Part shown: positions 1 to 48,700 of the stretch, in pieces | Position numbering within the stretch: position 1 is the stretch's first letter | Layout: each line of letters starts with the position of its first letter | Source of the DNA: a virus | Reading direction: 5' to 3' (one strand) | Length of the DNA: 64,000 bases | IMG/VR virus record: IMGVR_UViG_3300045988_172855 | Position numbers and translations under genes: made by a program | The notes under the pieces: model-generated | Told to the model about the DNA's origin: nothing | Databases searched by the model: none | Seen by the model: only the letters and a program-made list of their open reading frames with translations

Positions 1-356
1 TCATCCCAATTCTTACCTTGAGGACAAGCAAGTAGACTTGTAAACATTAAGTTACTCTTTGCTCTTTCGATTTTCAACCACTCAACAAATTGATTAAAAT
101 TTCTCATCGTCTCATTGCGATTGTATAGAACATCTAAAGGAATGACCTCATTCGGTTGAATCTCTTTCGTCAGCTTAAACAACTCTTCGTTAGTCAACAC
201 TTCGCCTTCATCACCAACACCCGAATCCAATATTGTGAAACGACCGTCTGCAATTGCTTTTTTAGTATATTCTCGATACTCAGAACTCTTCTTATACAAT
301 TGTCCTAAGATATAAAAATTCTTATCGCCTAGTTCACTTAACTCTAAATGACTCAT
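1..356 (-). CDS. TGT-fold protein, candidate DpdA-like 7-deazaguanine DNA transglycosylase (N-terminal part only; gene runs off the window start)
   Basis: Hand translation of the minus strand from ATG at 354-356 gives MSHLELSELGDKNFYILGQLYKK...GRFTILDSGVGDEGE...LLACPQGKNWD, open to nt 1. ILDSG and the later PQG resemble the DSG and QGG motifs of tRNA-guanine transglycosylase/DpdA barrels. folE-queE-queD lie in the same window. It is not in the ORF track because it is truncated. Confidence 0.4.
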   Translation of the reverse strand, partial: MSHLELSELGDKNFYILGQLYKKSSEYREYTKKAIADGRFTILDSGVGDEGEVLTNEELFKLTKEIQPNEVIPLDVLYNRNETMRNFNQFVEWLKIERAKSNLMFTSLLACPQGKNWD

Positions 357-376
357 AGGAGGTGTTACAAATACTC

Positions 377-9460: not shown

Positions 9461-11463
9461 TCTTCTAGTCTACTTATTCCGTTTTCTTTTATAATTCGAA
9501 TTTGACTTATCTCTTCATTAATTTTAGGTACATGCGTAACAATTATAGACGATTGTTTCAAAAATTTAATTGAAGAGATGATGTTTTCAATTCCCAACGA
9601 GTCAGCACTCTCAAGTATTTCGTCAACTAACAAAAATTGCATTCCACCATATTGCTTCGTCGCATTGATCATTTGTTGGATTGCTAATATTAATGCAATT
9701 TCTGTTCTCGCCTGTTCTCCTCCTGAGTAATAGAAAAAAGACTCCATCTCATCGCGAAATACATAAGGAGTTATTTCTTCTTTAACTTTTCCTTTTGCAT
9801 CAACTTTAAAACCTTCAATCATTAATCTAAGATCACTTCCCATTGATTTAAGTATCTCGTTAGCACGAGATTGGATATTTTTTAATTGCTCCATAGCGAG
9901 ATACATTTTAAAATCTTTAAATCGTTGTGTCCACCTTTGAATTTTAAAGATTTCATCATTTTTGTTTGTAATCTTCTTACATTGATCATCAATAAGATGT
10001 TCGGTTTCTTTGATGGTGTTTTCAATCTCATCAGTACTTTTCTTTACCACCTTAGTGTTTTTCAGATCCTTAATGTAAGCTAATTTCAAAGAAATTAAAT
10101 TCTCACCATTTTCAATCTCATTTTGCAGTGTCTTTACAAGATTTTCTTTTGATTTTATCTGTTGATCTAAACCTCCTATATTGTGTTCGAGTTCAAGGAT
10201 CTTCTTTTTCAAACTTCTCTGTTGATTTGCAACTTCATCAAACTCTTTATCAGTCTGAGATTTCAAAGACATATATTCATCTAAAACGGAATCAAGCTCT
10301 TCAATTGATTTTTCTGCAATCTTCTTTTCTTCAGACTCTTTATTTAACTCAATTTCAGCAGCTTCCTTTTGTTTTTTAATCTCTTGAACCGTTTTATCTG
10401 TTTTAAGAAAAAACTCGTGTTGACAATTAGGGCAAACTATAATTCCCGAAAGTAAAACTTCTATTTTATTAAGAGTTCTCTTAATGTCAACAATTCTATT
10501 TTGAATAACATTTAGAGAGTTCTCTTTAGTCCGCTTTTCTTGTCTACACACATCTACATCTTCGTCAATTTCTTTGTAAATTGTATCAAAATTAGAAGTA
10601 TCTATGTTCGAGAGTTCCTCTGAAACCTTTGTACGTAATTTTTCCAATTCACTTAAAGAATGCTTTAAACCTAAAGCAGATTGTTGCTCTTTTGAAATAC
10701 GAAGTTCGTTTGATTCAATAGCCTTTTTAACATCTTCAATGTAATCTTCAGCTTTTTTGATTTCTTGAAGCTGCTCCTCTTCAGGATTACTATCAAGAAT
10801 TTCTTGAAGCTGTTCCTGATATACCGAAAGTTTCCCTTCATAAGACGCTTTTGATCGATCCAATGCCTGTTTTTCTTCGTTTAAAACCAAAACCTTATCA
10901 TCTATAATGGATTTTGTTTTATCTAACATAGAGAAGTTTATAAACCGACTTATTAAAGCTAACTTTTCTGTGTTAGATGATCTAAAAAACGAATTATAAT
11001 TACCTTTTGAGACAATATAATATGACTTTGCATCTTCGGCCGAAATTTCAACCCAATTAGCAATATATCTATTACCATCGAGAACTGTTGCAAATTGAAC
11101 TTTCTCGATCTCAATCTCATCACCGTCATGGATCAAATATATTGCTAACACAGAAGATCCTTTTGCTCTTAGCTCTCTTTCGATTTTTAGAGTTTGTCTG
11201 CGAATTGGACAATAAATAAACACGCAGATATATGCCGTATCAAATCCCTTGCGTATTAACTTCTTATCTTGTTTATCACGAAGATTTACTCCATAAATTC
11301 CGTAAAATAATCCTTGTTCTAAGAACGATTTACCTGATCCATTTGACAACTGATCGTCTTGAGTACGATTTTCACCAATGACAGCGATCGCCTCTTGTTG
11401 AAAATCGTACTCAATAGATTCAAATGGACCGAAATTTTTCAATACTATTCTTGTTGGGTACAT
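9457..11463 (-). CDS. sbcC: SbcC/Rad50-like SMC-family ATPase
   Basis: Walker A NGSGKSF, long coiled coils flanking a CPNC zinc hook, signature YSGGEQ, Walker B FLLVDE. Adjacent to the SbcD-like nuclease locus. Confidence 0.8.
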   Translation of the reverse strand: MYPTRIVLKNFGPFESIEYDFQQEAIAVIGENRTQDDQLSNGSGKSFLEQGLFYGIYGVNLRDKQDKKLIRKGFDTAYICVFIYCPIRRQTLKIERELRAKGSSVLAIYLIHDGDEIEIEKVQFATVLDGNRYIANWVEISAEDAKSYYIVSKGNYNSFFRSSNTEKLALISRFINFSMLDKTKSIIDDKVLVLNEEKQALDRSKASYEGKLSVYQEQLQEILDSNPEEEQLQEIKKAEDYIEDVKKAIESNELRISKEQQSALGLKHSLSELEKLRTKVSEELSNIDTSNFDTIYKEIDEDVDVCRQEKRTKENSLNVIQNRIVDIKRTLNKIEVLLSGIIVCPNCQHEFFLKTDKTVQEIKKQKEAAEIELNKESEEKKIAEKSIEELDSVLDEYMSLKSQTDKEFDEVANQQRSLKKKILELEHNIGGLDQQIKSKENLVKTLQNEIENGENLISLKLAYIKDLKNTKVVKKSTDEIENTIKETEHLIDDQCKKITNKNDEIFKIQRWTQRFKDFKMYLAMEQLKNIQSRANEILKSMGSDLRLMIEGFKVDAKGKVKEEITPYVFRDEMESFFYYSGGEQARTEIALILAIQQMINATKQYGGMQFLLVDEILESADSLGIENIISSIKFLKQSSIIVTHVPKINEEISQIRIIKENGISRLEE

Positions 11464-12431
11464 AACTCTTTCTTTACGGTTTCATATATTTCATTAAATA
11501 ACTCTTGATCCTCAATAAGCGATTCGCGAACAGAATCCATACCTTGACCTAATTTATAATCGTCTCCATAATAAAACCACGAACCTCTTTTTTGACAGAT
11601 ACCTAATTTTACAGCTAACTCAACTGCTTCTTGAATTGTATCGAATCCTATTCCGAAACGCAACATCACTTCACAGTTTCTAAATGGAGGAGCTATTTTA
11701 TTTTTAACAACTTTGATTTTTGTTTTATTTGCAACAGCAATGTCACCATCTTTATCCGTTCCGATTCGAGCAAATTCAACTCTTTGCGTTGAATAGAATT
11801 TCAATGCCTTGCCTCCAGGTGTCATTGTTGTTGCTCCTCCAAAACCAAAACCTCCACCAACCTTATCTCTTAATTGGTTAATACAGAATAGTATATTATT
11901 GTTCTTTTTACATACATTTTTCAAGATACTTAATTGAGCTGACAATAGTCGAGCAACAAGTGCTACCTTTGCATCACCACTTTCTCCTTGTAGAGTTGCT
12001 TGTGGTACAAGACCTGCAACAGAATCAAGAACAACTAAACCTATTTCAGGACACATTAACATTTCGCGAATAATTTCCATCGCTTCTTCTGCTGAGTTTG
12101 GCTGCGATAAAATCCAATTATCATTAGAAATATCTACACCAAGTTTTCTCGCATAATCCAAATCTAATGCCTGTTCAACATCAACATATCCTACAGCTTT
12201 CTTCTGTGTTTTTTGTACAGATGCACAAAGATGTAATGCACACGTACTCTTTCCACTACTTTCATTCCCAAAACACTCATGAATTCGGCCTAAAGCCCAT
12301 CCTCCACCAAGAACATTATCTAACGCTAGAGATCCTGACGATACAGTCTCGACTTCTACATTAGTTCCCACAATCGCTTCTTTTCCAAATCTCTTTTCAA
12401 TTCTACCGAATAAATCGTCCAATCTACCCAT
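11445..12431 (-). CDS. recA: RecA-family recombinase
   Basis: SSGSLALDNVLGGGWALGRIHECFGNESSGKSTCALH (Walker A), VVLDSVAGLVP (Walker B) and loop L2-like GG..LKFY. 328 aa. Confidence 0.85.
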   Translation of the reverse strand: MGRLDDLFGRIEKRFGKEAIVGTNVEVETVSSGSLALDNVLGGGWALGRIHECFGNESSGKSTCALHLCASVQKTQKKAVGYVDVEQALDLDYARKLGVDISNDNWILSQPNSAEEAMEIIREMLMCPEIGLVVLDSVAGLVPQATLQGESGDAKVALVARLLSAQLSILKNVCKKNNNILFCINQLRDKVGGGFGFGGATTMTPGGKALKFYSTQRVEFARIGTDKDGDIAVANKTKIKVVKNKIAPPFRNCEVMLRFGIGFDTIQEAVELAVKLGICQKRGSWFYYGDDYKLGQGMDSVRESLIEDQELFNEIYETVKKELCTQQE

Positions 12432-16418: not shown

Positions 16419-19400
16419 TCAACTTAAAACAGTAAATGACGTATTCAAATTTGTTTGTAGAACATATTCTTGTCTCCACTTGTCAAATTGAATATATCCA
16501 TCTACCAATAGAAGATTGTTTTTACTTTCTCTCAAAAAGTCGGCATATTCAGCGAACAAATCAGGGAAAACAATTACATTTATAAATTCGTAATTACTTT
16601 CTAAAACTATTGTTGCGAACAATCCTTTCTTCGATTTACGCTCGATAATATCAATAACAAAACCTCCGATAATCGCACACTTAGAGCGATCGTTGCCATC
16701 CCAATATTTCAACTCACTTACATCAAAATATTCTGCATCTGAAAATGCATCGTCTGAATGATACTCCTCAATTAGACGTTTATAATCAAAAGACGCAAAT
16801 CCGGATAACTTCTTCTGTTGTAACGTCCACCACCAATCGTTTTTCTCCTTTCTTGCTTTTATAATGTTAGTTAAAAGATCCTTATCTTCAAGAATTTTTA
16901 CTCTCTTATTCTCACGATAAGACTCTATTAATCTCAATCGTTCGTGTGGTGCAGTGATGTTTTCAAGTTTATCGAACGCTCCACTATAAATGAGATTTTC
17001 AATAACTGACTTATTGACTGGCGAACCTTTTACAACACAACGATCAATAAATTCATCTAATGAGAAAAATTCACCATGTTTTTCTCGTTCATTGTGAATA
17101 AACTCTTGAGCTTTATCTCCACATTGCTTCACTGAATTCAAAGCCCAATACATACTACTTGTTTTGACATCAGAAACAATGTTTATATCACTTTTATTTA
17201 TATCAACAGATTTAATTGTAATATTACCTAACTTCTGAATTTCATTGATGTAAAACGGATAATCCTCAATCTTCGCATGTGAGAATGTTACAGACCAAAA
17301 CTCAATGGGATAATGAGCTTTCAGCCAAATGCAGTTATATCCATTTCTCGAGTACGCAATTGCATGACTAAAATTAAAAGCATACTTACCAAACTCCTCC
17401 ATCTGTTTCCAAAGATCTTGAGCATACTTTTCTTCAACTCCAAAACGCTCAACATAACCTTTTACAAATTTATCGCCAAAACTCTTTAATTTAGATGTAA
17501 TTTTTTTACCCATGCAATTATGAGCTAAAATTCCACCTACAAAAGCGTACGGGCTTCTATCAGATGTCATTGTAAAATCATAAACAGGAAGTTTACCAAC
17601 CCTATCGTAAGATTCTACTTTCAAAAAACAGAATTCTCTTTTTAAAATGTTTTCAAGATATTTACTTCTTCCACATCTTTTCAATATTTTTTCAGCTCTC
17701 CTATAAGTCAAGTCAAAAGGACGATTGATTCCGTAATTCAAAATATTCTTTCCTAACAACTCATTGCAATTATATCCGGAATGATCAATGAGATTTTTAA
17801 TAATAGGTTGCCAAATTTCAAAAGGTATTTTGTATTGACTATAAGAATCTAGATCAAAATCCTCTAACTTAAAATTAAATCGTTCTTTAATTTTTGTCGA
17901 ATATGGTTCGAGCATTGCTTTGATCTTCAAAGCGTCTTCAATAGAAGAAATTCCTATATCATAATATTTCTCAGGATATTCTGCAAAACTTCTTGAATTT
18001 GTTGTAGTTAAAACTCCAAGACAACTAAAAAGAATATTTATCTGATCAATCAATTCCTTTGATTTAGAAGAATAACCTATTAATAACCCTCCCTTTTTAG
18101 AAGCAACATAGCCATCAAAATCAATTAATTTCCCAAGAACAAATAATTGACATTCTTCATTTAAAGAAAAAATGTAGTCAGGTAACCTTTTTTCATCTGA
18201 TTTAACAAATTCAAGACCTAAATCTGTAACAACAGAGTCTTTTATCTTTAAGCTCGTACATCCTGTATATTGATTATAATATTCTTTAGGCTCTTCTCGA
18301 ACAAATTCTTTATAACATCTTTTAAATTCACTCAATTCTGACTCATCTTTATTAACAAAATTACACGAACCAATAGTTCCTATAGATCCTTCTGTCAATA
18401 AAGCTATCATTAAATAAAGTTCTTCTTTAGATTTAGATAGTGTTCCAAATCTTCTACTAAGATCTTTGTAAACATAGTGTCCTACACAATCCTTAGCTTC
18501 TAACCAACCAACTTCTGTTAATAATTTATGATCCGGAGTGCATGTAAAGTGATTGTCTCCTTGCATATTCAATTTAATACACTCCTTTTCTTTTTTATAA
18601 ACTCTTCTATAAACCTTATTCCATTTGAAACAACACTCTTTTTCATTATACGTAGTAACGGAAGTAAATGGTTTTATATTTTTAATTTTAACAGCTCCAT
18701 CAGGAGTCCAAAACAATTCTTCACCCCAAATACATTTTCTCACTGAATCTGTCGTTTCTAGGTCAAATCCTGCCAAATGCTGACATAATCTCATTATATC
18801 CTCCTGAGTAATCAATAATCCTAAATGTGGACGAAGAATATCTTCTGCTCCTATAGGATATTCGATTTCACTTTCACCTCTCTTTCTCAAGATATATTCA
18901 TTGTGATAATTATTTTCAATTGGACCAGGACGATATAATGCTGCACATAATCCCATTTCATCGAGACTGTGTGGTTTCATCTGTACACAATACGAAGAAA
19001 GTCCTTTTGCGCCAAAATGAAAAACGTCACCTAAATAACCTTTTTCAATGTACTCAAAAACAATTGGATCGTCTAAAGGAACGTCATTATAAAGATCTAA
19101 TTTGATACCACGATTTTTCTCAATCAATTTTAAAATATCAGCTAATTTATCAAGCTGAGCAATTCCTAAAATATCTTCTTTCAAAAAACCAGCTTCTTCA
19201 ATTTCTGCACCTTCCCATTCTGTCACTACCAGTCCATTAGACTCTCTAACTGGCACCCATTGTGCTGACGATTTCTCATCAGGATATACGACTGTACCAC
19301 ATGCGTGAATTGATGCTGATTTAGGAGAATTCAAACAAACCATAACGTCATTGATTAATTCTGTATGACTTTTAACAAACTCTCTTAACTCTGTATCACT

Positions 19401-19703
19401 GCAGATAACTCTGAAAAAATCTTCAATACTTTTCATACCCTCCTCGTCTCTCAATTTAGAAGTAATTCTTCTAACTGTTCCTATCGAAATACCTTCACAA
19501 CGAGCAAGATCTGTAATTGCAGCTTTTAATTGCATTGTCGTATATGTTCCAAGTGACGTCACTTGCGTTATACCAAATCTTTTTTCCATATACTCTTTAA
19601 CTCGAGGGCGTTGTTGGCCTTCAAAGTCTGTATCAATATCAGGCATCGATCCGAGTTGTCTTATTTCTTGAACTTCTTTTTTAAGACTTTTAATCGTTAT
19701 CAT
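16419..19703 (-). CDS. dnaE: DNA polymerase III alpha (DnaE-type), C-terminal piece: palm/fingers/OB, interrupted by an intein
   Basis: SMPDIDTDF catalytic aspartates, HACG, LKEDILG, YRPGP, (intein), MGKK, AFNFSHAIAYS and a C-terminal OB-like IIGGFVIDI. It begins exactly where ORF 19690-21315 stops matching DnaE. Confidence 0.85.
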   Translation of the reverse strand: MITIKSLKKEVQEIRQLGSMPDIDTDFEGQQRPRVKEYMEKRFGITQVTSLGTYTTMQLKAAITDLARCEGISIGTVRRITSKLRDEEGMKSIEDFFRVICSDTELREFVKSHTELINDVMVCLNSPKSASIHACGTVVYPDEKSSAQWVPVRESNGLVVTEWEGAEIEEAGFLKEDILGIAQLDKLADILKLIEKNRGIKLDLYNDVPLDDPIVFEYIEKGYLGDVFHFGAKGLSSYCVQMKPHSLDEMGLCAALYRPGPIENNYHNEYILRKRGESEIEYPIGAEDILRPHLGLLITQEDIMRLCQHLAGFDLETTDSVRKCIWGEELFWTPDGAVKIKNIKPFTSVTTYNEKECCFKWNKVYRRVYKKEKECIKLNMQGDNHFTCTPDHKLLTEVGWLEAKDCVGHYVYKDLSRRFGTLSKSKEELYLMIALLTEGSIGTIGSCNFVNKDESELSEFKRCYKEFVREEPKEYYNQYTGCTSLKIKDSVVTDLGLEFVKSDEKRLPDYIFSLNEECQLFVLGKLIDFDGYVASKKGGLLIGYSSKSKELIDQINILFSCLGVLTTTNSRSFAEYPEKYYDIGISSIEDALKIKAMLEPYSTKIKERFNFKLEDFDLDSYSQYKIPFEIWQPIIKNLIDHSGYNCNELLGKNILNYGINRPFDLTYRRAEKILKRCGRSKYLENILKREFCFLKVESYDRVGKLPVYDFTMTSDRSPYAFVGGILAHNCMGKKITSKLKSFGDKFVKGYVERFGVEEKYAQDLWKQMEEFGKYAFNFSHAIAYSRNGYNCIWLKAHYPIEFWSVTFSHAKIEDYPFYINEIQKLGNITIKSVDINKSDINIVSDVKTSSMYWALNSVKQCGDKAQEFIHNEREKHGEFFSLDEFIDRCVVKGSPVNKSVIENLIYSGAFDKLENITAPHERLRLIESYRENKRVKILEDKDLLTNIIKARKEKNDWWWTLQQKKLSGFASFDYKRLIEEYHSDDAFSDAEYFDVSELKYWDGNDRSKCAIIGGFVIDIIERKSKKGLFATIVLESNYEFINVIVFPDLFAEYADFLRESKNNLLLVDGYIQFDKWRQEYVLQTNLNTSFTVLS
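17517..18734 (-). mobile_element. intein with LAGLIDADG homing endonuclease inside dnaE
   Basis: aa 324-729 of the ORF. Block A CIWGEELF, block B CTPDH, LAGLIDADG motifs LMIALLTEGSIG and LFVLGKLIDFDGYV, and terminal GILAHN followed by +1 Cys. Exteins rejoin as DSVRK|CMGKK, matching the conserved DnaE RRAMGKK. Boundary codons were checked on the DNA. Confidence 0.85.
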
Positions 19704-21315
19704 AATCTAATAATATATCTCCTTCTTTTAATTCACCTGCTTTAACTATCATCTTTTCTTCGTTTCTAAAGATACGAACAAAACTTGTACAAGGTATAAT
19801 AATAGGTGATGAACTTTCTTCGTTAATGATAACCTCTTCAATCTTATCGTGACGTATCAAACGACCTGTTGTTAAGAATCTTTCAAATAGTAGATCGTAA
19901 TCAAGAGGATTAATATAATTCAATCCTAGTAAATACGAAATCAAACATCCACAAGCTGAACCACGACCAGACCCAATTAGAATGTCTTCTTTCTTACACC
20001 ACTTTACAATGTCTCTAAGCATTAAAAAATAGTCGACTACTTCACCATCTTCGATTACCTTCATCTCTTTTTCAAGTCTCTCAACAACTTCATCTTCAGA
20101 ATAATTTTCAAGTATCTCAGGATGTTCTTCGAGTCCTTTGATTATGAGATCTTCAAACATAGCAATATTATCTTCATATTGTAAAGCCTCTTCGTCAGTC
20201 ATGTAATATACAGGCATGTGTCTATTTTGAGTCTCTATTACAAAGTTACATTCAAAAGAAATTTCTTTCAAATTTTGAACAGCTTTTTCAAATGTATCAA
20301 AAAACGCCTCATCGTCTCCGAACAACTTACCAAGCTCTTCAAAATATTCTTGATAATTTTTCATATATTGATTATCACTTTCATAAGTAACGACCTTCGC
20401 TAAGGTATTCATTTTTCTCTTAATAGGAGACCATTCTTTTTCAACATAATACGCATCACACATTGCAACCGGATTCATTTTACTGTCAAAAAACTTTTTC
20501 AAATTTTTCAAGTAAAATTCATCACGATCATCTTTTTCGTATTCAACTGTATCTAATTGATAAAATGAAATAATTTTCTTGAGTTCTCTTGGAATCTTCG
20601 TATAATCAATTGTTTTAGGATCCCATATAAAAATCAAACCCTCTTCACTCTCAAGAATATCTTTTTCTGTTACATATTCTGTATTAGTCTTGTTCATCAA
20701 TTCATTTAGATGTAACAAATTCTCCCAGCCTTTTTGATTTTTAACAAATGCTTTGATTGTGTAACGAATATCGTTTACTTCATCGGAAACCTTAATCTCC
20801 AAACCTTGAATAGCTCGTATTCCATTTTTCTGACACGCAGTCTGAAATTTCATTGCTGCAGCAAGTGTACCTTTTTCACACAAACCTAAACTAGTGATCC
20901 CTAAAAATTTAGCTTTCTTACACCATTGATCGTATAGACACATTCCATTCATCAATTCGAACGGTCCATGAATACCAAGATATGTATCTATATAAAGACT
21001 TTCGTCTACCAATTTAGCTCTACCGATCCATTTTACAGGTTGTAGCTTTACAGACTCTTCTTTACCTTTTTCTAAAGCATACCAAACAGATCCAAAGCAA
21101 AAAATATAGTAATCGTATTCAGTTCTATCACACGCCCAATTAAAGTGTTCATCAAAATAAACACCTCTTTCATTTTTATCCCACTTAAACGGTTCAAAGA
21201 GTTGATAAACTTTATCGTTTATATCAATTAAAAATTCATCTTCGTCTTCTAAAACTTTATATTCAATAAAATTGTCTTCTAAATATTGTAGAAGTTCGGC
21301 AAACAATTCCCTCAT
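19690..21315 (-). CDS. dnaE: DNA polymerase III alpha (DnaE-type), N-terminal PHP-domain piece, a separate ORF
   Basis: IGSGRGSACGCLISYLLGLNYINPLDYDLLFERFL matches DnaE up to the ERFL motif. About 60 non-DnaE residues follow, then TAA at 19690-19692. It overlaps the downstream piece by 14 nt (ATGATAACGATTAA). Confidence 0.8.
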   Translation of the reverse strand: MRELFAELLQYLEDNFIEYKVLEDEDEFLIDINDKVYQLFEPFKWDKNERGVYFDEHFNWACDRTEYDYYIFCFGSVWYALEKGKEESVKLQPVKWIGRAKLVDESLYIDTYLGIHGPFELMNGMCLYDQWCKKAKFLGITSLGLCEKGTLAAAMKFQTACQKNGIRAIQGLEIKVSDEVNDIRYTIKAFVKNQKGWENLLHLNELMNKTNTEYVTEKDILESEEGLIFIWDPKTIDYTKIPRELKKIISFYQLDTVEYEKDDRDEFYLKNLKKFFDSKMNPVAMCDAYYVEKEWSPIKRKMNTLAKVVTYESDNQYMKNYQEYFEELGKLFGDDEAFFDTFEKAVQNLKEISFECNFVIETQNRHMPVYYMTDEEALQYEDNIAMFEDLIIKGLEEHPEILENYSEDEVVERLEKEMKVIEDGEVVDYFLMLRDIVKWCKKEDILIGSGRGSACGCLISYLLGLNYINPLDYDLLFERFLTTGRLIRHDKIEEVIINEESSSPIIIPCTSFVRIFRNEEKMIVKAGELKEGDILLDYDND

Positions 21316-21966: not shown

Positions 21967-22539
21967 TTATTTTTCAGAAAAGACTACCTCCTTTATTTGC
22001 ATCATTCTCTGTTCTACTGTACCCGTCACCCTTAAATGTGGAATATCAGAATTTTTCAAAATCTGTTGAATCTTTTGATCAAAAGATTCACGTAATAATT
22101 CATCGACTAATCTTTCTCCGTCATTCTCTACAGGAAACTCAATAGGTGTGTACACTAGAAGTGATAAATCGTCCTTTCTTCTGATAACTTCTTTTCTTTG
22201 AAAGAACTCTTCTGTACTCATATCTATAAAATCCTCACTACCTACCGGCATCTGATCAAATAAAACAGACGTAAATGCAGCAACATCAATTATACATCTA
22301 TCAGCAACAGAAGGAGCTTCAAACATCTTCGAAAGAATTTCATTATATCGATCAAAAATCATTCGTTGAGTCTCTGAATTACTTTTTTCATTGATCTCAC
22401 GTCCTTCTTTATGAAGATCTCTTACAACATTTGTAAAAAATGACCAACCTTCAAATTGTGGATCCTTTTTCATTGCTTCAATAAGAGTTGTCTTACCTGT
22501 ACATGACGATCCGCAAAAACTTATTTTCTTGTACTTCAT
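21967..22539 (-). CDS. P-loop NTPase/kinase (NadR-kinase/AAA_28-like)
   Basis: N-terminal Walker A ISFCGSSCTGKTTL. Size 190 aa. Adjacent to the MazG and queuosine-precursor genes. Confidence 0.5.
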   Translation of the reverse strand: MKYKKISFCGSSCTGKTTLIEAMKKDPQFEGWSFFTNVVRDLHKEGREINEKSNSETQRMIFDRYNEILSKMFEAPSVADRCIIDVAAFTSVLFDQMPVGSEDFIDMSTEEFFQRKEVIRRKDDLSLLVYTPIEFPVENDGERLVDELLRESFDQKIQQILKNSDIPHLRVTGTVEQRMMQIKEVVFSEK

Positions 22540-22541
22540 AA

Positions 22542-23063
22542 TTATCTTAAATCACCTGATCCGTGTATTACATTTCTCTTTTTACGAGATGCTAATTTTT
22601 CATTATTTTTAAGAGCAATCTCTTCAATCGTTAATCCTAAAGATTTTGAAAGACCGTTCAAATAACTCCAAACATTCTTCCACGCTTCAACAGTCTGATC
22701 TTTTCTGTTTTCTGAAAAATGATTGCATGAATCCTCAGACCAATCATCTCTCAAAAACTTCTTAACTTGCTCAGCAATTTTACCAACTTCTGAAACAATA
22801 TCAAACGGAGACGGCATCCGAACATCTTCATTCCAATTCCAATCGTCTTCAATGGGAAGATTCAGTTCTATGCGAATCATTGCTAAATACCACATCATAT
22901 CTCCAATTTCTAATGCAACATCTTCAATATTCGCTTCATCTTTCATTTTTTCAAACGTCTCACCCATCTCTCCAGCTAAACCAATTACAACATAAGGAAT
23001 CGCTACTTTAGGATTGTATATAGGCGTTTGATTTGCCTTTGCTTCATATTCTTTGTAATTCAT
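22542..23063 (-). CDS. mazG: MazG-like nucleoside triphosphate pyrophosphohydrolase
   Basis: GLAGEMGE...EIGDMMWYL matches the MazG EExGE/E..D..WY metal-binding helices. ATG at 23061-23063 avoids the 23-nt overlap of the longer track ORF. Confidence 0.7.
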   Translation of the reverse strand: MNYKEYEAKANQTPIYNPKVAIPYVVIGLAGEMGETFEKMKDEANIEDVALEIGDMMWYLAMIRIELNLPIEDDWNWNEDVRMPSPFDIVSEVGKIAEQVKKFLRDDWSEDSCNHFSENRKDQTVEAWKNVWSYLNGLSKSLGLTIEEIALKNNEKLASRKKRNVIHGSGDLR

Positions 23064-23067
23064 CTTC

Positions 23068-23703
23068 TTATTTTTTAGAACAATTTTCAATCATTTTATA
23101 CACTTCATCACGGCTTCCAATTTCGTTAGTCTTGAAATAACCTGAACAGTACGTTGTTTGCATTTCCGAATTATCTTCAACACCACGAAGTTTTACACAC
23201 GTATGTTCAGCTCTGATGTGAACAAAAATACCTTGATTTTCACCGAGAATTTCATTCAAATAATCGTGAATTTGTTTACATAGATATTCTTGAGTTTGAG
23301 GTCTTCTTGACAAGAAATCTACAATACGGTTTAATTTAGACAAGCCTATAATATTACCATCTTTTTTCGGAATATAAGCCACATCGCATGTTCCAAAAAA
23401 TGGTAAAATATGATGAGCACAGAAACTATGAACCTCAACTCCTCCTTGAAAGACAATACCATCGTAACCATTTTCATTCGGAAATACAGTAATCTTTGGA
23501 GGATTATCATAAGCTCCACCGCCCAATTCTTTTACAAAAACCTTTGCAACACGATAAGGTGTCTTCTGCATACTTGGATCATTTCCCCAGTCATATCCTA
23601 ATGCTGTTAAAAACTCGCCATAAGCCTTCGTAGCTCTTGACATCATTTCTTCTCTTTCTTTTTCAGACAAAACCATATTTTGTCCTGCTTTAATTTTCAT
23701 CAT
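23068..23703 (-). CDS. folE: GTP cyclohydrolase I
   Basis: FCAHHILPFFGTCDVAYIPK...IGLSKLNRIVDFLSRRPQTQE is near-colinear with the FolE CEHHLLPFFG...GLSKLNRIV..RPQVQE core. Confidence 0.85.
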   Translation of the reverse strand: MMKIKAGQNMVLSEKEREEMMSRATKAYGEFLTALGYDWGNDPSMQKTPYRVAKVFVKELGGGAYDNPPKITVFPNENGYDGIVFQGGVEVHSFCAHHILPFFGTCDVAYIPKKDGNIIGLSKLNRIVDFLSRRPQTQEYLCKQIHDYLNEILGENQGIFVHIRAEHTCVKLRGVEDNSEMQTTYCSGYFKTNEIGSRDEVYKMIENCSKK

Positions 23704-23707
23704 AACT

Positions 23708-24559
23708 TTATCTTTCTTTTTCAGTACCCCAAATCACTATTTGTAAGCGATCGGTATAATTATATCCATGTTCAGCACAATATTCAGCAACCATTCTTCT
23801 GTTTTGATTGAGTTGGTCATTTGTTGCACCTGCCGGCATTAGAGTTATATTCCACGGTTTGATAAATTTCATATCATACCACAATTCTTCCTCATTGTTT
23901 TTGTAAAATGGTTGCCTCTTTTCTCTTCGCTGCGAGATGTCATAATCAATCAATTCACGAATATGTTTTTCAATTTCTTCGAAATCTTCTTGACCTCCTA
24001 CAACATATTTCAATCTGAAATCCTTAGCAAATGTAATCATTGTCCACAGTGCTTCTTTATTGAAACGTTTATGTGAATGTGACTTCATCGCATCACTCAT
24101 TTTTATTCCGAGTTTTTCGCACTTCTCTTGAGTAGGTTCTGATGAACTAAGTTTTGGAGAGATGTTTAAAAGATCAATTCTCTTCAAGAGCTCGCTGTCA
24201 ACTACAATACTTCCATTTGTTTCAACTATAATATACTTATCGTATTCTCCGTCACATATATCAATAAGTTCAGAAACAAATTCAGGATATAAAAATGGTT
24301 CTCCACCTGTTATCGAAACAGAAGGAGTAAGTGGATGTTTCTCTAACAAATTGATCACATCTTGATAACAATACTTACCTTTGTCAGCTTTAAAACTTGA
24401 ATATGCTGTATCACATATACTATTTGCAAACATACATCTCAAATTACAACCTGACAATCTAACGAAAATTGTCGGTTCTCCGGCTGTTACAGATTCTCCT
24501 TCAATAGAATTAAACAATTCTATAATCGGTCTTTTTTCATTTAATTGCATCTTTGTCAT
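23708..24559 (-). CDS. queE: 7-carboxy-7-deazaguanine synthase (radical SAM)
   Basis: IFVRLSGCNLRCMFANSICDTAYS (QueE-type cluster motif with a lengthened spacer), ITGGEP. Sits between folE and queD. Confidence 0.75.
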   Translation of the reverse strand: MTKMQLNEKRPIIELFNSIEGESVTAGEPTIFVRLSGCNLRCMFANSICDTAYSSFKADKGKYCYQDVINLLEKHPLTPSVSITGGEPFLYPEFVSELIDICDGEYDKYIIVETNGSIVVDSELLKRIDLLNISPKLSSSEPTQEKCEKLGIKMSDAMKSHSHKRFNKEALWTMITFAKDFRLKYVVGGQEDFEEIEKHIRELIDYDISQRREKRQPFYKNNEEELWYDMKFIKPWNITLMPAGATNDQLNQNRRMVAEYCAEHGYNYTDRLQIVIWGTEKER

Positions 24560-25146
24560 ACTTGTTTTTCGATTTTAGGATTTTCGAAATACTTTACACC
24601 TTCAGGCATTCCTTCAGCAAAAAATCGTCTGAGTTCAATCGGCCAATCTTTCTGTACTCCTTCTGAAAACTCTGCTTTCAAATCTACCGGTAAAAAACAA
24701 GCGTCATGTTCAAATGCAGTTGCACTTCCTGTTCTTGTTTCATAATATTGTACAGAATGAACGATAACATTCTTTTCTCCGTTATTGAAAATCGTTGCTT
24801 TAAGTATCTTATTTATAACATATAACATATATAAAGATAACATTTCTGCAGATGGATTCACTGGCAAAACTATCCATCTATCAGACCACTTCTTTACGTC
24901 GTTAATGTATTCAGGATAATCTTTTTTCCATAAGACAGTACAGTGATCAAATGAGTCGATAAAACTTTTAATCGTTGTTTTCATAAGACCAAAATCCATA
25001 AGCATTTGACCTCTGTCTTTCGAACTCGCTGTAAAACTCACTAACACTTTAAAAGAATGACCGTGTATAGAGTGGCGGCACCTTTGCGTAGAACAATTTC
25101 GCACAATATGTGCCATTTCTCCTTCAAATTCTTTTGTTATAATCAT
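24556..25146 (-). CDS. queD: 6-carboxy-5,6,7,8-tetrahydropterin synthase
   Basis: FEGEMAHIV...CRHSIHGHSFKV matches the QueD AAH...C..LHGHSF zinc/catalytic motif. Confidence 0.75.
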   Translation of the reverse strand: MIITKEFEGEMAHIVRNCSTQRCRHSIHGHSFKVLVSFTASSKDRGQMLMDFGLMKTTIKSFIDSFDHCTVLWKKDYPEYINDVKKWSDRWIVLPVNPSAEMLSLYMLYVINKILKATIFNNGEKNVIVHSVQYYETRTGSATAFEHDACFLPVDLKAEFSEGVQKDWPIELRRFFAEGMPEGVKYFENPKIEKQV

Positions 25147-26140: not shown

Positions 26141-26196
26141 TGTCCTTTTCTTTTGATGTTGTAAAGGTACACTTTTGATACACGCGGTCCAACAAT
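26141..26196 (-). repeat. 56-bp perfect direct repeat, copy A (contains a promoter-like TTG-N20-TACCTTTA)
   Basis: Identical to 27622-27677. Minus strand ATTGTTGGACCGCGTGTATCAAAAGTGTACCTTTACAACATCAAAAGAAAAGGACA. It starts at the last base of the primase stop codon. Confidence 0.9.
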
Positions 26197-27621: not shown

Positions 27622-27677
27622 TGTCCTTTTCTTTTGATGTTGTAAAGGTACACTTTTGATACACGCGGTCCAACAAT
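27622..27677 (-). repeat. 56-bp perfect direct repeat, copy B (contains a promoter-like TTG-N20-TACCTTTA)
   Basis: Identical to 26141-26196. It lies 3 nt downstream of the helicase stop (27681) and 28 nt upstream of ATG 27593. Confidence 0.9.
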
Positions 27678-30795: not shown

Positions 30796-31442
30796 TGCAA
30801 TTCAAATGTATTTCTAAAACGTATTTTCTTCTTATTCGACAATTGTGTCTGACCTTCTCCTCTCAATTTCTTTATATAAGAAATTAAAAGCAAAGCATTG
30901 GCTTTTGTATCTGTCAAAGCTCTATGTGCATCTACAAGATCTATCCCTGCTAATTGACAACATGTACTAAGTTTATAATCCATTTGTTCTAAAGCAGATA
31001 AATGAGCCCACGATAAAGTATCGATCCAATATTTGACATAATTATCAATATTATCTCCCATATCTTCAAAAAAGTTTCTTAAAAAAGGAATATCAAACGA
31101 TATATTGTGTCCTCCCATACTACACATTTGTCGAGGATTTTTGTATTTTTTAAATATGGCACAAACTTCTTTGTAAATTATTTTAAGTTCAACACCATTA
31201 TTTTGTCTCACTTCCTTTTTAATCCCATGTACTTCTTCTGCTTCCTTTGTGTAAATTAATTCTTCTTTATACTCATCTTTAAAAATGAAAGATTTTTCTT
31301 CAATAATTGAAAGATTTTCACAATCAATTACGACTAAAGCTAATTCAACTGCAGCTATATCGTAATATGCTCTTTGTTTACTATTAGGTAAACCTCCTGT
31401 TTCAAAATCAAACATTATAATATACTTAGCAGATGTTTTCAT
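30792..31442 (-). CDS. DnaQ/epsilon-like DEDDh 3'-5' exonuclease
   Basis: ExoI MFDFETGG, ExoII GHNISFDIPFL, ExoIII HRALTDT. Confidence 0.75.
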   Translation of the reverse strand: MKTSAKYIIMFDFETGGLPNSKQRAYYDIAAVELALVVIDCENLSIIEEKSFIFKDEYKEELIYTKEAEEVHGIKKEVRQNNGVELKIIYKEVCAIFKKYKNPRQMCSMGGHNISFDIPFLRNFFEDMGDNIDNYVKYWIDTLSWAHLSALEQMDYKLSTCCQLAGIDLVDAHRALTDTKANALLLISYIKKLRGEGQTQLSNKKKIRFRNTFELQ

Positions 31443-32175
31443 TTATTTCTTGTTTTAAAAATTCAACTAATTCTTCGATATTATCAGATACACTATTCGA
31501 TTTCTCAAGATTGTCTTTTGCCCATAGAGGCTGTAAGTTTCTGTAATTGAAACAGATACGTTGGTTTTCCTCTTTTGTCAAATCGAAATAAGAACACGGA
31601 ATGATATGATCAATCTGCCACTTTCCTTCACCTTTTCCTAAATTATCCCACGTCATTCCAGGTTCAAATTGCATCTCGAGATGAGCTTTCAGCTCATCGA
31701 TCGAGCAACCGAGAAGATTGAGAGTGTGATCTGATTTCTGATTGTTTTTAAGTGCTGTCAGAAGTCTACCTCTTAAATTAGAACTAATTTTATAATTTAT
31801 ATCACTAATTCTCTTTTCCTTGTAATATAAAGACGATTTCCCTAAAAGATTTCGTCTTTTTCTAGACTTTTCGTTAGACTTCTTTCCTTTTTCAGATCGT
31901 CTATACTCATCATTTATTTTTCTATAAACAACCTTACCTTTTTCAGAAGTTCGCCATCGTTTATTCCTCTCTCTTCTCAACAACCTTCCTCTTTCGGAAC
32001 TAACATAATTCTTTTTACAATTTTTACATTGACAATCATAACCATCTGAACAACGTTTGTTCATATAAAAATGATCAAGTGACAATTTACATTTACAAAC
32101 TGAACAAACCTTTAATCCCGTCTCACAATCAAATTTCATCTTTATAAACCTGATTATTTTCGTTCGCAAGTACAT
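31426..32175 (-). CDS. free-standing HNH homing endonuclease
   Basis: N-terminal Cys-rich region and basic repeats. C-terminal WQIDHIIPC...NYRNLQPLWAKDN is an HNH motif. It is a paralogue of 63665-64000. An alternative ATG lies at 32139. Confidence 0.75.
   Translation of the reverse strand: MYLRTKIIRFIKMKFDCETGLKVCSVCKCKLSLDHFYMNKRCSDGYDCQCKNCKKNYVSSERGRLLRRERNKRWRTSEKGKVVYRKINDEYRRSEKGKKSNEKSRKRRNLLGKSSLYYKEKRISDINYKISSNLRGRLLTALKNNQKSDHTLNLLGCSIDELKAHLEMQFEPGMTWDNLGKGEGKWQIDHIIPCSYFDLTKEENQRICFNYRNLQPLWAKDNLEKSNSVSDNIEELVEFLKQEINENIC
31641..31755 (-). repeat. 115-bp exact repeat shared by the two HNH genes (copy 1)
   Basis: aattatcccacgtcattccaggttc...gattgtttttaagtgc is identical to 63886-64000. 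The identity is cut by the window end. Flanks are related but diverged. Confidence 0.9.
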
Positions 32176-44220: not shown

Positions 44221-45696
44221 TTGCTTATTAATTCACAATCAATCACGCTCTATGCCCTCTACATAAGCTCATCAGGGTGGTTTGCTCCTGTGACGAGTAA
44301 GTCGATAGATGTAGAAAATATAAATAATTATTATACAGGTTTACAAGGTAAAGATAAATTAAAAGAAGGTACTTCTTCGTTTGGATATTATTTTGATAAT
44401 CATATCGATTATCGAGGTAATAGTCAACCCATGTTTAGTGTTGCAGATTTTGGTAGAAGTGGTATATCAATTAATTTGGGTTTTTATTATATTAATGAGT
44501 ATAATGAAATTATTTCAGATAGAAGTGAGCAATTTCATGCCAATTCTAACAAAGTTATTTTAAGAGGAAAATTATTGGTAGCTTCCAATCAAATTAACAG
44601 TATGGTTGCTGCTATAGGTTGTGTTTCGAGCTCTGATAATCAATTTTCAAGATCTATTTGGATGGTTTATAAGGGAACGGGTTATAAAGTACGGAGAACT
44701 ACGAACTTTTCCAGTTCTACTAATTTATTAAAAGCGTACAGTAGTTACACTTTACAAAATGCGATATATTGGGGACAATGGAAAGGTAGTGATAATTATA
44801 TAGGAAGTTATTCAGCTAATCCCTTAGGACATTCACTAACAGTTGGGTACATATTATCAGATCCCAATTATGGTACTAGCGGAGAAGTTGATATATCGTT
44901 AGGTGGTATAGTTGTAAATTTTCTCAAGGCGATATTAATAGAAACTGAAACAGTAACGAGTGGAACTGTAGGAATATATGCTAAAATCGTTCTTTTAGGC
45001 ATCCATGATGATCGTAGTAAAACATTGTATTACGTGAAAATACGGTGTTATAATTCAGGTAGTGTATCGTACATTCAAAAAGTAGGTGATATAGTTTCTT
45101 ATAAATCAGTCAACCGTCCAATGGGAGCTAATTTATGGTTTACGACTGATAGAAAATGGATGTTTTTTCCACCTTCAGGTGATAGTTTTTATCCTAAAGG
45201 AATAAACTCATATTATGCTAATGGTCAACAATTGATAGTAGATGGTTCAACTTCTATGCCTGATGATGTTAGTTATCTGAATTCATCTCACACATCTGCA
45301 ATGAGATCTGCTTTGCAAAATGTATACGTATTAGAGATTTTGTTTAACAAGACTCAAACTAAAATGATTGTATTAACAAATACAACTGGAGCTGCATTTG
45401 AAATTGGAGATTTTGAAGGTAATTACAATCCTGATGCTATGTATTGTTTTCAATTGGTAAATAATTCTTGGGTACAAATTTCAACTCAAGCTATAGATAG
45501 ACAAAATGTTTTAGCTTCGTATAATTCAACTGGAAATCAAGGTATCAAGTATAAATCAAGTCTTTCTCTTTGTGATAAATCAAATGATCTCGGTTCATTA
45601 GCTATGTTTGGTAGTCAATATAGTTTTAACTGGGCATTTCCTGCAAATAGCAAACCGACTGTATTTTATACATCAAAAATAACGTGGGGTGAATGA
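44221..45696 (+). CDS. silent alternative C-terminal cassette of the giant tail fibre (no ATG start; paralogue of the region encoded by 45715-47097)
   Basis: The only long plus-strand ORF not nested in a minus-strand gene. The frame opens after TAA at 44179-44181 with no ATG before IR-L (the track start is TTG). The C-terminal ~190 aa align with the giant fibre tail (YPKGINSYY, SYLNSSHTSAMRSALQNVYV.EI.FNKT..KMIVLTN). Confidence 0.7.
   Translation: MLINSQSITLYALYISSSGWFAPVTSKSIDVENINNYYTGLQGKDKLKEGTSSFGYYFDNHIDYRGNSQPMFSVADFGRSGISINLGFYYINEYNEIISDRSEQFHANSNKVILRGKLLVASNQINSMVAAIGCVSSSDNQFSRSIWMVYKGTGYKVRRTTNFSSSTNLLKAYSSYTLQNAIYWGQWKGSDNYIGSYSANPLGHSLTVGYILSDPNYGTSGEVDISLGGIVVNFLKAILIETETVTSGTVGIYAKIVLLGIHDDRSKTLYYVKIRCYNSGSVSYIQKVGDIVSYKSVNRPMGANLWFTTDRKWMFFPPSGDSFYPKGINSYYANGQQLIVDGSTSMPDDVSYLNSSHTSAMRSALQNVYVLEILFNKTQTKMIVLTNTTGAAFEIGDFEGNYNPDAMYCFQLVNNSWVQISTQAIDRQNVLASYNSTGNQGIKYKSSLSLCDKSNDLGSLAMFGSQYSFNWAFPANSKPTVFYTSKITWGE
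44236..44301. repeat. 66-bp perfect inverted repeat, left arm (IR-L)
   Basis: caatcaatcacgctctatgccctctacataagctcatcagggtggtttgctcctgtgacgagtaag is the exact reverse complement of 47032-47097. It encodes QSITLYALYISSSGWFAPVTSK in frame in both ORFs. Confidence 0.95.
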
Positions 45697-45706
45697 TTCA
45701 CCCCAC
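45684..45706. terminator. bidirectional intrinsic terminator between the two convergent fibre cassettes
   Basis: Stem gtggggtgaa/ttcaccccac with loop tga (the plus-ORF stop codon). T-runs follow on both strands (ttctttt on plus, GTTATTTTT on minus). Confidence 0.65.
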
Positions 45707-45711
45707 TTCTT

Positions 45712-48700
45712 TTACCATATTGTATTTGTATAAGATATATAATAATCCACATTATAAGCAGGTTTACCCCAAGAAAGAGTCCAATTACCGTCATTATCCT
45801 GTAATAATAACGAAGGTCTTTTTAAAGAGTCGCTTTCGTTATAAGAATTCCACAAATTAACTCTATCGACAATAGAAGAAACGTTTATCCATGATGCCGT
45901 ATTTGCTTGATAAACAAATGCAAACATTCTATCAGGATTATGAGAATCTCCGTCGAATGTAAAACTATTTGTAACAGCAAATGAACCTGAAACACTATTC
46001 GTCAATACGATCATTTTATCAGACGTCTTATTGAAGATAATTTCCTGTACATAAACATTTGATAATGCACTTCTAATTGCAGATGTATGAGATGTATTGA
46101 GGTAAGAAGCGTTATTTTCAATGTAATTTGTAACATTGCTTGTTATAAATTCTTTGTTACCATAATAGGAATTTAATCCTTTTGGATAAGCAATAGATGT
46201 ATTTTGAGATTTAGGAACAAAAAATATCCATTTTGTATCAAAACTAACCCAAATATTGGGTCCGAGATTTTGATTAAAAACATGATTTGAAGGAGTTTCG
46301 TAAAATGAAGATAAAGAACCTAAATGTCCACTACTATTGACATTGAAATTACCCGTAACAATTTCAAAAATATAAGAATCATTGCCTCTTAATATCAAAA
46401 GTGCTTTTTTATCAGCGAATCCTATCAATTTTATACCATAATAATCACTTGAAATATTGTCAGGAAGTACGTGAGCATTTGTAGAACATGATCCTGATAG
46501 CAATGCTACAGTATTTTCCCTTATTGCTCTTGATTCAAATGCTTTAGAGAGAACTAAACAATAGTCTGAATGATAAATATGACAAAATGCATGAGTACTT
46601 GTGTAAGTATTAAATACTCTTTTTATTGATCTTATACTTGTATCTCCGAATGATCTTGCTGATCGACCTTCGTTTACTCCTCTATATGTAATCGTATTCA
46701 CATAATAAACACTGTTTGCATGCCATGTAAAATGTTTAAATATATTCACACTATAACCATCAGATCCCTTTGAACTATAAATGCATCTTGTTTTAGAAAC
46801 CTGTGATGTTGTAAATTGCGAATAATTCCTAGTATTGCCGCCATCGGACGGATAAAAATATGTATCTATTGAAGAACTTGCATTTGAAACACTAGCTAAA
46901 AATAAACTAGAATTAACGCCAGGTGTATATGGGAAAAAGGCACAACAACTACTAGTATTTGCATTTTCCCTGCTATATCGATTATTATCTGATATACCGG
47001 TATATACTGTTCTAATAGCCCTAGCTACTTTCTTACTCGTCACAGGAGCAAACCACCCTGATGAGCTTATGTAGAGGGCATAGAGCGTGATTGATTGATC
47101 AGAGATGAAAGAAACTGCCGACCCGCTTCGATTAGGAACGGGGAAATTATTTGTTCCAGTTCCTCCCCAAGCAGTCGATCCCCCTGCTTCAGTCCAGTAA
47201 TTACCCGGTCTGATTTTTAAAACCAATTGACCACTTGCGTTAGTTGTTCCACTATAATTTACTGCACTATTATTATTTGACAGTTTTACGATACAACTTG
47301 CAGCAACCAATGATGTATTATCACTTCTCTTTACATTGATAGTTAAATTCATTTCAGAAGGTACTAATTTCAATGTAAAATTAGTTGTGTTCGCGTTAGT
47401 TGTGTTCAGTATATCGTATCTTGATGCACTAATGATATATCTATTAGTTAATCCTGAAACATATACAGTCGTTTGTCCATTTGAATTTGTAGTTAAATTC
47501 TGTGCTGATGCTGACGTAGCGTTACTACCATCTATACCATATACAGTAACAGTTGCTCCGCTAACATTTGCATTTGTCAAACTATTCTGAACCGTTAATG
47601 TTAAAGCCTTAATAGCTGTAAAATATTTTATTCCCGTTACATTGCTAAAATTATATGTAGGAGTGACATTATACATCGTATGAGTTGTCGTTGTACCTGT
47701 TACGAAATAAGCATTTGAAGCTCCCATTGTCGTATTCAAACCAGCTATAAACGTATAATTTGCAATAACATAATTTGAATTATGATCAATTCCTAATGTT
47801 ACAGTGGTAGCTACACCTGCAGTTGTATAAACCGGTTTAAATAAATTTACACCACCTGCTTTTAAATAAAAATCTCTTGATCCTTGAGTAGGTACTCTGA
47901 AATACCATATCAAAATAACATTCTTAGTCAATCGAACAGCACTTTTTTGAATAGAAGCTGTTGGCATTGTAATATCTACAGACTGCGCTCCCCAATAAGA
48001 AGTTCCTCCACCCCAACTCAAAGTATAAGTTCCTTGAATCATCGGACCAAACGAAACTTGACCGGAAGAGTTGGTGTTGCCACTAAATGTAATTGACGTC
48101 TTGTTTTTATTAGTGAGTTTTACAGGACAACCATTTGCATTTCCTTTATCTGCACCTTGATAATTATCTTTAATTGTTATTGTAATCGAAGAAGAAGTTT
48201 CACTTAAAGTTACATTCCAAGGAGAGGCTTGAGTAGCTGGAATCGATCCTGATGCTGTGTTATACAAACTCTTAGAAAAGCTGTAACTATAATTAGGAGT
48301 TCGTCCTCCTCTATAAACCGTAGCGTTACCACTACCATCTGTAGTTACAGTTTGTCCAAATAATGTTGCACTTACGCCACTTATATTCCATCCATAATTA
48401 GAACTCTTCACATTTGCAACGAATTGCGTTTTAGACGTCATTGTCATTGTCCACGATTCACCTTCTCTTGTCCAAACGTGAGTTTGCGTTCCGTTACTAT
48501 AATATCCGGCGTTAGCTTTTGGAGTGTAAGAGTACGTCAATCCTGCATAAACTGTATTTGATTTTCTACCACTTCCATCTAATGTTAACTCAGTTACAGC
48601 TCCTAATACAGTTCTATTTACAATTGAATTTAAAAATGCCCCTGTATAAGTTCCTAACTTTTCCATTACAGTTAGTGTTACTGTAACAGTTGTTCTCGTA

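Follow-up and report, generated by a model that had tools for sequence, protein, structure and literature searches.

A probable phiST-type 7-deazaguanine DNA-modification gene set, split in two and partly fused, in a metagenome-derived phage

Introduction

Why would a phage encode the enzymes that make a 7-deazaguanine precursor, together with a candidate enzyme for inserting a modified base, and no QueC? This question is raised by a 64,000-nucleotide stretch of viral DNA (IMG/VR record IMGVR_UViG_3300045988_172855), referred to here as the window. A first interpretation made from the letters of this DNA (the sequence-only reading) recognised folE, queE and queD side by side, saw no queC, and pointed to a transglycosylase-like open reading frame (ORF) at the window edge. 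It proposed that host QueC, or a queC gene outside the window, completes the pathway, or else that a carboxy-type or otherwise uncommon derivative is installed. We find that the window probably holds both halves of a 7-deazaguanine (dDG) DNA-modification system of the type described for phage phiST, in which a DpdL domain, overlooked in the sequence-only reading and located in ORF 377-1294, would take the place of QueC. As judged by homology, the gene set is a new split and partly fused example of the published phiST-type pathway, and is known in kind.

Results

The precursor genes form a compact block

The first of the two modification blocks consists of five genes (aa, amino acids):

24556-25146, minus strand: QueD, 6-carboxytetrahydropterin synthase, 196 aa (PF01242, phrog_2389, TIGR03367)
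23708-24559, minus strand: QueE, radical-SAM 7-carboxy-7-deazaguanine synthase, 283 aa (phrog_2076, NCBIfam, phiST QueE)
23068-23703, minus strand: FolE, GTP cyclohydrolase I, 211 aa (PF01227, E 4e-46)
22542-23090, minus strand: MazG-like nucleoside-triphosphate pyrophosphohydrolase, 182 aa (phrog_229, E 3e-22)
21967-22539, minus strand: P-loop kinase, AAA_28 / NadR-kinase-like, 190 aa (PF13521 (AAA_28), E 2e-15; phrog_2107, E 5e-25)

FolE, QueE and QueD were confirmed with Pfam, PHROG and NCBIfam as contiguous minus-strand genes spanning 23068-25146. QueD matches PF01242 with 69.6 bits (E 3e-19; cut-off 22.4), the QueD-like family phrog_2389 with E 6e-23, and the NCBIfam QueD model TIGR03367 with E 2.5e-16, the last under its curated cut-off; its motif, read from the sequence, is C-x4-HGH, a variant of CxxxHGH. 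QueE matches phrog_2076, annotated 'QueE-like radical SAM' (E 5e-46), and its top five NCBIfam matches are all QueE models. In BLASTP comparisons with phiST, QueE shows 30% identity (E 4e-36) and FolE 44% identity (E 2e-58) to the corresponding proteins. Since all three enzymes are present, the phage is equipped for the synthesis of 7-carboxy-7-deazaguanine (CDG): together they would convert GTP into CDG, which is established biochemistry for these families.

The MazG-like protein is the predicted ortholog of phiST CGPG_00068 (BLASTP, 34% identity over 187 aa, E 3e-23), and the slot directly after FolE is common to the window and phiST. The kinase next to it adjoins MazG in a complete related genome (G017, see below) too; its relatives in phage records carry the annotation 'thymidylate kinase', and a homolog, gp203, lies within the 7-deazaguanine cluster of Flavobacterium phage immuto_2-6A. 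The sequence-only reading had identified both proteins correctly; in gene order both come after QueD-QueE-FolE. All genes of the block (21967-25146) share the minus strand and either overlap or are 2-4 nt apart, and we therefore regard them as one transcription unit.

The AAA_28 kinase was also considered as a marker of guanine-replacing phages. We rejected this for lack of specificity: of its 89 matches, 63 are in Streptomyces phages, and Samisti12, the sole Streptomyces phage checked, has neither FolE nor QueC.

No QueC in the window, the rest of the genome or the relatives

No SGGxDS motif occurs in the six frames of the window, and none of the 40 window ORFs scanned with Pfam matches QueC; among them are all ORFs of 150 aa or more, apart from two large structural proteins (3196 and 896 aa). 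PF06508 (QueC) has no match in two further contigs either: G001, which is 99% identical to the window where aligned and has 56% of its sampled 31-mers, and G002, which supplies 42.6 kb beyond the window, giving a genome extent of about 106.6 kb for the two combined. Although flagged as having terminal repeats, G002 is an incomplete genome, since window ~9.5-31.5 kb, with the FolE block, is missing from it, and we did not use it alone as proof that QueC is absent.

QueC was also not found in 19 related phage records, including G017 (106 kb, terminal repeats, rated 100% complete), so that the queC postulated outside the window is missing from the rest of the genome and from these relatives alike. 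Two positive controls of the search, Campylobacter phage CP220 and immuto_2-6A, both match. The search found no QueC in phiST or Chryseobacterium phage MA9V-3, both of which bear DpdL, and CP220 and immuto_2-6A, which combine a DpdA3 transglycosylase with QueC, are not among the DpdL matches. QueC and DpdL are complementary: DpdL is present and QueC absent. QueF and a canonical tRNA-guanine transglycosylase (TGT) were not found either, and the earlier observation that queC, queF and an amidotransferase are lacking is borne out. The missing queC is a defining trait of the phiST-type pathway, not a gap.

A DpdL domain fused to a kinase

ORF 377-1294 encodes a protein of 305 aa on the minus strand, directly upstream of the transglycosylase gene, with a 4-nt overlap with the start of the latter. 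Two domains can be distinguished:

929-1294, minus strand: DpdL domain, QueD-like, aa 1-122 of ORF 377-1294 (LEQPHRHLF signature; match to phiST DpdL)
377-883, minus strand: P-loop domain resembling nucleoside-monophosphate (NMP) kinases, aa 138-305, fused to DpdL (PF13238, E 2e-7)

Pfam detects only the P-loop in the C-terminal half. The N-terminal domain contains LEQPHRHLF at aa 35-43, corresponding to the motif LxxxHRHxF, which is invariant in 12 diverse DpdL homologs, and it is 44% identical to phiST DpdL, CGPG_00067 (BLASTP, E 2e-25). In a model of the domain, the strand/helix/strand order is consistent with a T-fold. DpdL has been described as a QueD paralog in which LxxxHRHxF replaces CxxxHGH, and was proposed to be a CDG decarboxylase (Cui, Hutinet et al., NAR 2023, PMC10516641); for later literature on DpdL or DpdA3, we found nothing beyond Cui et al. 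2023.

The kinase domain carries the Walker A motif GGCCSGKT and is the putative ortholog of a separate phiST gene, CGPG_00066 (BLASTP, 29% identity, E 2e-14). In Foldseek comparisons of its model, the best PDB matches are UMP, AMP, CMP and TMP kinases (TMt 0.55-0.66), and APS kinase and polynucleotide kinase also score, which leaves the substrate class wide. All 22 related loci keep the fusion, as do 67 protein clusters with identities of 43-96%. The CGPG_00066-type kinase is a separate gene beside DpdL in phiST, MA9V-3 and one further locus (L042), and in one protein (P0188) DpdL is fused to MazG instead of the kinase.

MA9V-3 (L003) offers a third fusion type beside the kinase and MazG fusions. 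There, at 11458-12339, a 293-aa protein ends in a DpdL domain of 115 aa, and its N-terminal part contains Cys and His residues and, in our reading, resembles an HNH or zinc-finger-type region.

A small TGT-fold transglycosylase at the window edge

The second block ends, at the window edge, with the following gene:

3-380, minus strand: DpdA3, TGT-fold 7-deazaguanine transglycosylase, N-terminal 126 of 261 aa (match to phiST DpdA3)

The sequence-only reading placed this ORF at 1-356; the ORF is real, and its coordinates are 3-380. BLASTP aligns the fragment with phiST DpdA3 (CGPG_00065) at 35% identity (E 3e-29). The full-length protein of 261 aa was taken from the near-identical IMG/VR contig L004 (9708-10493), where the first 126 aa are identical to the window fragment, and shares 38% identity with phiST DpdA3 from end to end (E 3e-61). 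The family comprises 120 homologs, down to 32% identity, nearly all of them unannotated. Three distant DpdA3 loci (35-40% identity) each have a DpdL gene within ~2 kb.

The sequence-only links to solved structures failed (by HMMER, the DpdA3 profile matched no TGT chain), and a fold comparison was therefore needed. The AlphaFold2 model, built on 66 of the 120 homologs, is confident (pLDDT 95.1, pTM 0.91) and is predicted to have a TGT-type TIM-barrel fold. With Foldseek, the closest PDB folds are eukaryotic, bacterial and archaeal (ArcTGT) tRNA-guanine transglycosylases and the DNA preQ0 insertase DpdA (7ui4), with E ~1e-5 and TMq 0.5-0.67, and with class II aldolase barrels interspersed among the TGTs. 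Among viral models, the best match is phiST M4SLA5 (TM 0.93, root-mean-square deviation 1.3 Å), and phage proteins named queuine tRNA-ribosyltransferase are found lower among the matches. The model thus agrees with the TGT/DpdA-like assignment of the sequence-only reading, rather than with a protein of another fold.

Among the residues invariant in the 66 DpdA3 sequences are D52 (LDSG), G185 and E191 (HFLGQGDPxE), and D204 (STDSC). E. coli Tgt has TDSGG (D89), YLMGVGKPE and MFDCV (D264) in the same order as in DpdA3, and the last two motifs are 19 residues apart in both proteins; this match is at the level of motifs, not a residue-level superposition. We take the Tgt TDSGG and FDCV-like motifs to hold the base-binding Asp and the nucleophile Asp, respectively. 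The CxCxxC...H zinc site of E. coli Tgt has no counterpart in DpdA3, in which no conserved Cys cluster is found.

In Pfam, 1 of the 66 family members touches the TGT family PF01702 (E 0.04) and 3 match DUF6610, the DpdA4 family. Matches of 16 of the 66 to PF24680 (SH3_Hsr9) were treated as spurious.

The split arrangement is conserved in a clade of related phages

The two modification blocks lie ~21 kb apart in the window; the sequence-only reading placed the transglycosylase about 23 kb from the precursor genes. Between the blocks are replication genes, coding for UvrD-like and SNF2 helicases, RNase H, an NAD ligase, RecA, an SbcCD-like pair and a DnaE polymerase. Along its whole length the window is syntenic with G017, which has QueD-QueE-FolE-MazG-kinase at 41.7-44.9 kb and DpdL::kinase-DpdA3 at 70.6-71.9 kb; the split modification genes of the two genomes share 38-86% protein identity. 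The separation of the blocks is a conserved feature of the clade and not a sign of unrelated functions.

A megablast search of 50,697 phage records with the gene cluster gave no match and no close cultured relative. In a translated search of the same records, the best matches were phiST and MA9V-3, for ORF 377-1294 and the edge ORF alike. The clade consists of metagenome-derived ~100-107-kb phages represented by dozens of protein clusters and contigs. For the few relatives with a stated source, this is human faeces, and the phages of the clade probably infect Bacteroidota.

Other features of the genome

The DnaE-type polymerase (16419-21315) is encoded by two ORFs with a 14-nt overlap, the split falling inside the NTPase domain (profile positions 98 and 100 of 260). 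A LAGLIDADG homing-endonuclease domain (aa 522-579), which we read as probably part of an intein, is found in the second ORF. Window ORF 31426-32175 (249 aa, no family match) may be a mobile gene, as its homolog in G017 is at a different site, between the two DnaE halves. One copy of a direct repeat of ~270 nt, partly 100% identical (31484-31755 and 63741-64000, 32.2 kb apart), lies inside the same ORF, and the repeat sequence also makes up what looks like a terminal repeat in contig G002.

In the replication module, two genes have at their ends the copies of a perfect 56-nt direct repeat (26141-26196 and 27622-27677, spaced by 1481 nt), perhaps a regulatory element present twice. Further on, the arms of a perfect 66-nt inverted repeat, 44236-44301 and 47032-47097, enclose a 2.7-kb segment; one arm is at the start of the sole plus-strand gene (44221-45696, 491 aa) and the other, around aa 2735, is within the 3196-aa minus-strand protein, which is located among tail genes. 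Relative to its flanks, the segment is reversed in contig G002. The region 44236-47097 resembles an invertible cassette by which the C-terminus of a giant tail-fibre-like protein would be exchanged, a host-range switch. The gene for the 3196-aa protein also contains, at 48779-50355, 3-4 diverged tandem copies with a period of ~497 nt, which point to repeated protein domains.

Discussion

A probable pathway to 7-deazaguanine without QueC

Taken together, these genes argue for a phiST-type pathway, which we consider probable. After CDG formation, the DpdL domain would convert CDG to 7-deazaguanine by decarboxylation, in place of the QueC route from CDG to preQ0; this activity is a proposal of Cui et al. 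2023 (PMC10516641). Guanine would then be exchanged for 7-deazaguanine by DpdA3, a small zinc-less TGT-fold enzyme, as inferred from its fold, motifs and homology. Most probably, the MazG-like pyrophosphatase and both P-loop kinases are functional parts of the system and act on the nucleotide pool, where they would remove dGTP, phosphorylate the modified nucleotide, or do both. If the phage behaves like phiST, most or all of its virion dG is replaced by dDG, and G-reading defences, restriction enzymes among them, would be less effective.

Several observations weigh against this assignment. Only 126 aa of DpdA3 lie in the window, where the ORF starts at 380 and leaves at base 3. DpdA3 scores below the threshold against the Pfam TGT family PF01702, which gave no match for the query, and hhalign of its profile with the single sequence of E. 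coli Tgt produces a sensible alignment with a non-significant E of 0.21. For DpdL, no QueD chain was matched when its profile was compared with solved structures by HMMER, and its hhalign alignment to the window QueD (single sequence) is weak and non-significant (E 0.035). The decarboxylase activity of DpdL and the substrate of DpdA3 are proposed and predicted functions, the dDG of the window phage is inferred from orthology alone, and the attempt of Cui et al. to obtain dDG in E. coli from dpdL plus dpdA was unsuccessful (PMC10516641). Finally, G-containing palindromes are still depleted in the genome (CATG, observed/expected 0.55; AAGCTT, 5 observed vs 26 expected), and such avoidance is not what total immunity to G-reading restriction enzymes predicts.

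Where the base exchange might take place

The conserved MazG and two kinases raise what we see as the more interesting question, whether DpdA3 acts on DNA or on nucleotides. It is conceivable, if rather doubtful, that in DpdA3/DpdL systems guanine is replaced in the nucleotide pool before replication, and not on finished DNA as published. MazG would first convert dGTP to dGMP, DpdA3 would swap the base on the free nucleotide or nucleoside, and the two kinases, one of them fused to DpdL, would rebuild the triphosphate for the phage DnaE polymerase. If true, this route would explain both the complete replacement of G and the failure of dpdL plus dpdA to yield dDG in E. coli.

The reading is favoured, circumstantially, by the DpdL::NMP-kinase fusion in the 67 protein clusters and by the DpdL::MazG fusion of P0188. 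Also circumstantial are a MazZ-type dGTP diphosphohydrolase domain directly before DpdA3 in another locus (L043), the kinase and phosphoribosyltransferase beside DpdA in the immuto_2-6A cluster, and the small, zinc-less nature of DpdA3. What speaks against it is that AAA_28 kinases are also found in Streptomyces phages, of which Samisti12, the sole one checked, has neither FolE nor QueC, and that two of the three distant DpdA3 loci have no kinase within 6 kb. To our knowledge, all DpdA enzymes tested to date act on DNA. Cui et al. (PMC10516641) mention no kinase.

Other explanations for the gene set

Among the alternatives to the phiST-type pathway, the one that survives best, while being unlikely, is that CDG itself is inserted, so that the end base would be dCDG, or dDG formed by decarboxylation after insertion, with DpdL acting on the nucleotide or on DNA instead of the free base. 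In a queC mutant, CDG is inserted by a DpdA2, with low efficiency (PMC10516641), and the fusion partners of DpdL, NMP-kinase-like here and MazG in P0188, both act on nucleotides. On the other hand, no dCDG was detected in phiST DNA, and Cui et al. considered their DpdL model compatible with the free base (PMC10516641). The derivative would still be an uncommon one, as the sequence-only reading foresaw, but the carboxy type is disfavoured by the presence of DpdL and by the lack of dCDG in phiST.

It is quite improbable that the phage makes only CDG and that host QueC, perhaps with QueF, finishes preQ0 or preQ1 for insertion by DpdA3. Bacteroidota hosts do have QueC, as illustrated by the control Bacteroides thetaiotaomicron, which scores in the QueC search, and preQ0 is inserted by other DpdA subfamilies (PMC10516641). 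Nevertheless, a dedicated DpdL lies beside DpdA3 in every relative examined, phiST with an equal gene set has no dPreQ0 or dPreQ1 (PMC10516641), and, among the DpdA3 phages checked, CP220 and immuto_2-6A, whose base depends on QueC, encode their own. The presence of DpdL makes both the borrowing of host QueC and a carboxy-type base unnecessary.

Hardly credible is the view that FolE, QueD and QueE, which in cells work in tRNA queuosine synthesis and here lie ~21 kb from the transglycosylase, are auxiliary metabolic genes for host queuosine or pterin, unrelated to DNA modification, given that CDG is a dead end for queuosine without QueC, that the split arrangement with DpdL::kinase-DpdA3 is kept in the complete relative at 38-86% protein identity, and that phiST has the three genes contiguous with DpdL and DpdA3.

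Implications

If the phiST-type pathway operates as predicted, total G replacement of this type would no longer be confined to a few marine and Campylobacter phages and would include an abundant clade of phages of ~100-107 kb. With 7-deazaguanine in its DNA, a phage would be protected from many restriction enzymes and may behave oddly in native-DNA sequencing and in cloning. The DpdL-kinase fusion provides a concrete hypothesis for the failed reconstitution, with MazG and the two kinases as candidate extra genes.

Comparison with known systems

The closest known system is that of phiST, whose genes are in the order QueD-QueE-FolE-MazG-DpdL (CGPG_00067)-CGPG_00066-DpdA3 (CGPG_00065). In the window, the order is QueD-QueE-FolE-MazG-kinase, ~21 kb of replication genes, then DpdL::kinase-DpdA3. 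Every phiST component has a predicted ortholog here, the internal order is kept, QueC is absent and the DpdL signature is present; DpdA3 has equal length and, in the models, an equal fold (TM 0.93), both phages have a DnaE-type polymerase, and infection of Bacteroidota is probable in both. The window differs in that the module is split ~21 kb apart by replication genes, in that DpdL and the CGPG_00066-type kinase are one 305-aa protein, and in that a second kinase, of the AAA_28 type, follows MazG. The window phage has a ~106-kb genome and is metagenome-derived (IMG/VR), whereas phiST is a 79-kb marine phage. In phiST DNA, dDG takes the place of all dG: 302,000 dDG per 10^6 nucleotides were measured, with no dG peak, dCDG or dPreQ0, and no dPreQ1 (PMC10516641).

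CP220 and immuto_2-6A resemble the window phage in having a DpdA3-family transglycosylase, FolE, QueD, QueE and a homolog of the AAA_28 kinase; window DpdA3 is 24% identical to its homologs in Campylobacter phages. Unlike the window, both encode QueC and are not among the DpdL matches, and they therefore end in amido or aminomethyl derivatives, not plain 7-deazaguanine.

The DpdA1 and DpdA2 systems (Enterobacteria phage 9g, Escherichia phage CAjan) and bacterial DpdA/DpdB share the precursor route from GTP and a TGT-fold transglycosylase. The DpdA1/DpdA2 preQ0-type systems need QueC and put preQ0 into finished DNA at 0.1-32% of G (PMC10516641). DpdA3 of the window phage differs in lacking the CxCxxC zinc motif of E. 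coli Tgt and in its size, 261 residues vs 413 in the solved DpdA.

Base replacement before replication is known from the hydroxymethyl-dC of T4, with dCTPase gp56, gp42 and dNMP kinase gp1, and from the Z-genome set of MazZ, PurZ and DatZ. The window genes match these sets in enzyme classes, with a base-modifying enzyme encoded together with an NTP pyrophosphohydrolase and at least one nucleotide kinase; the central enzyme is without homology, and the resemblance, which is relevant to the site of the base exchange, is a functional analogy only.

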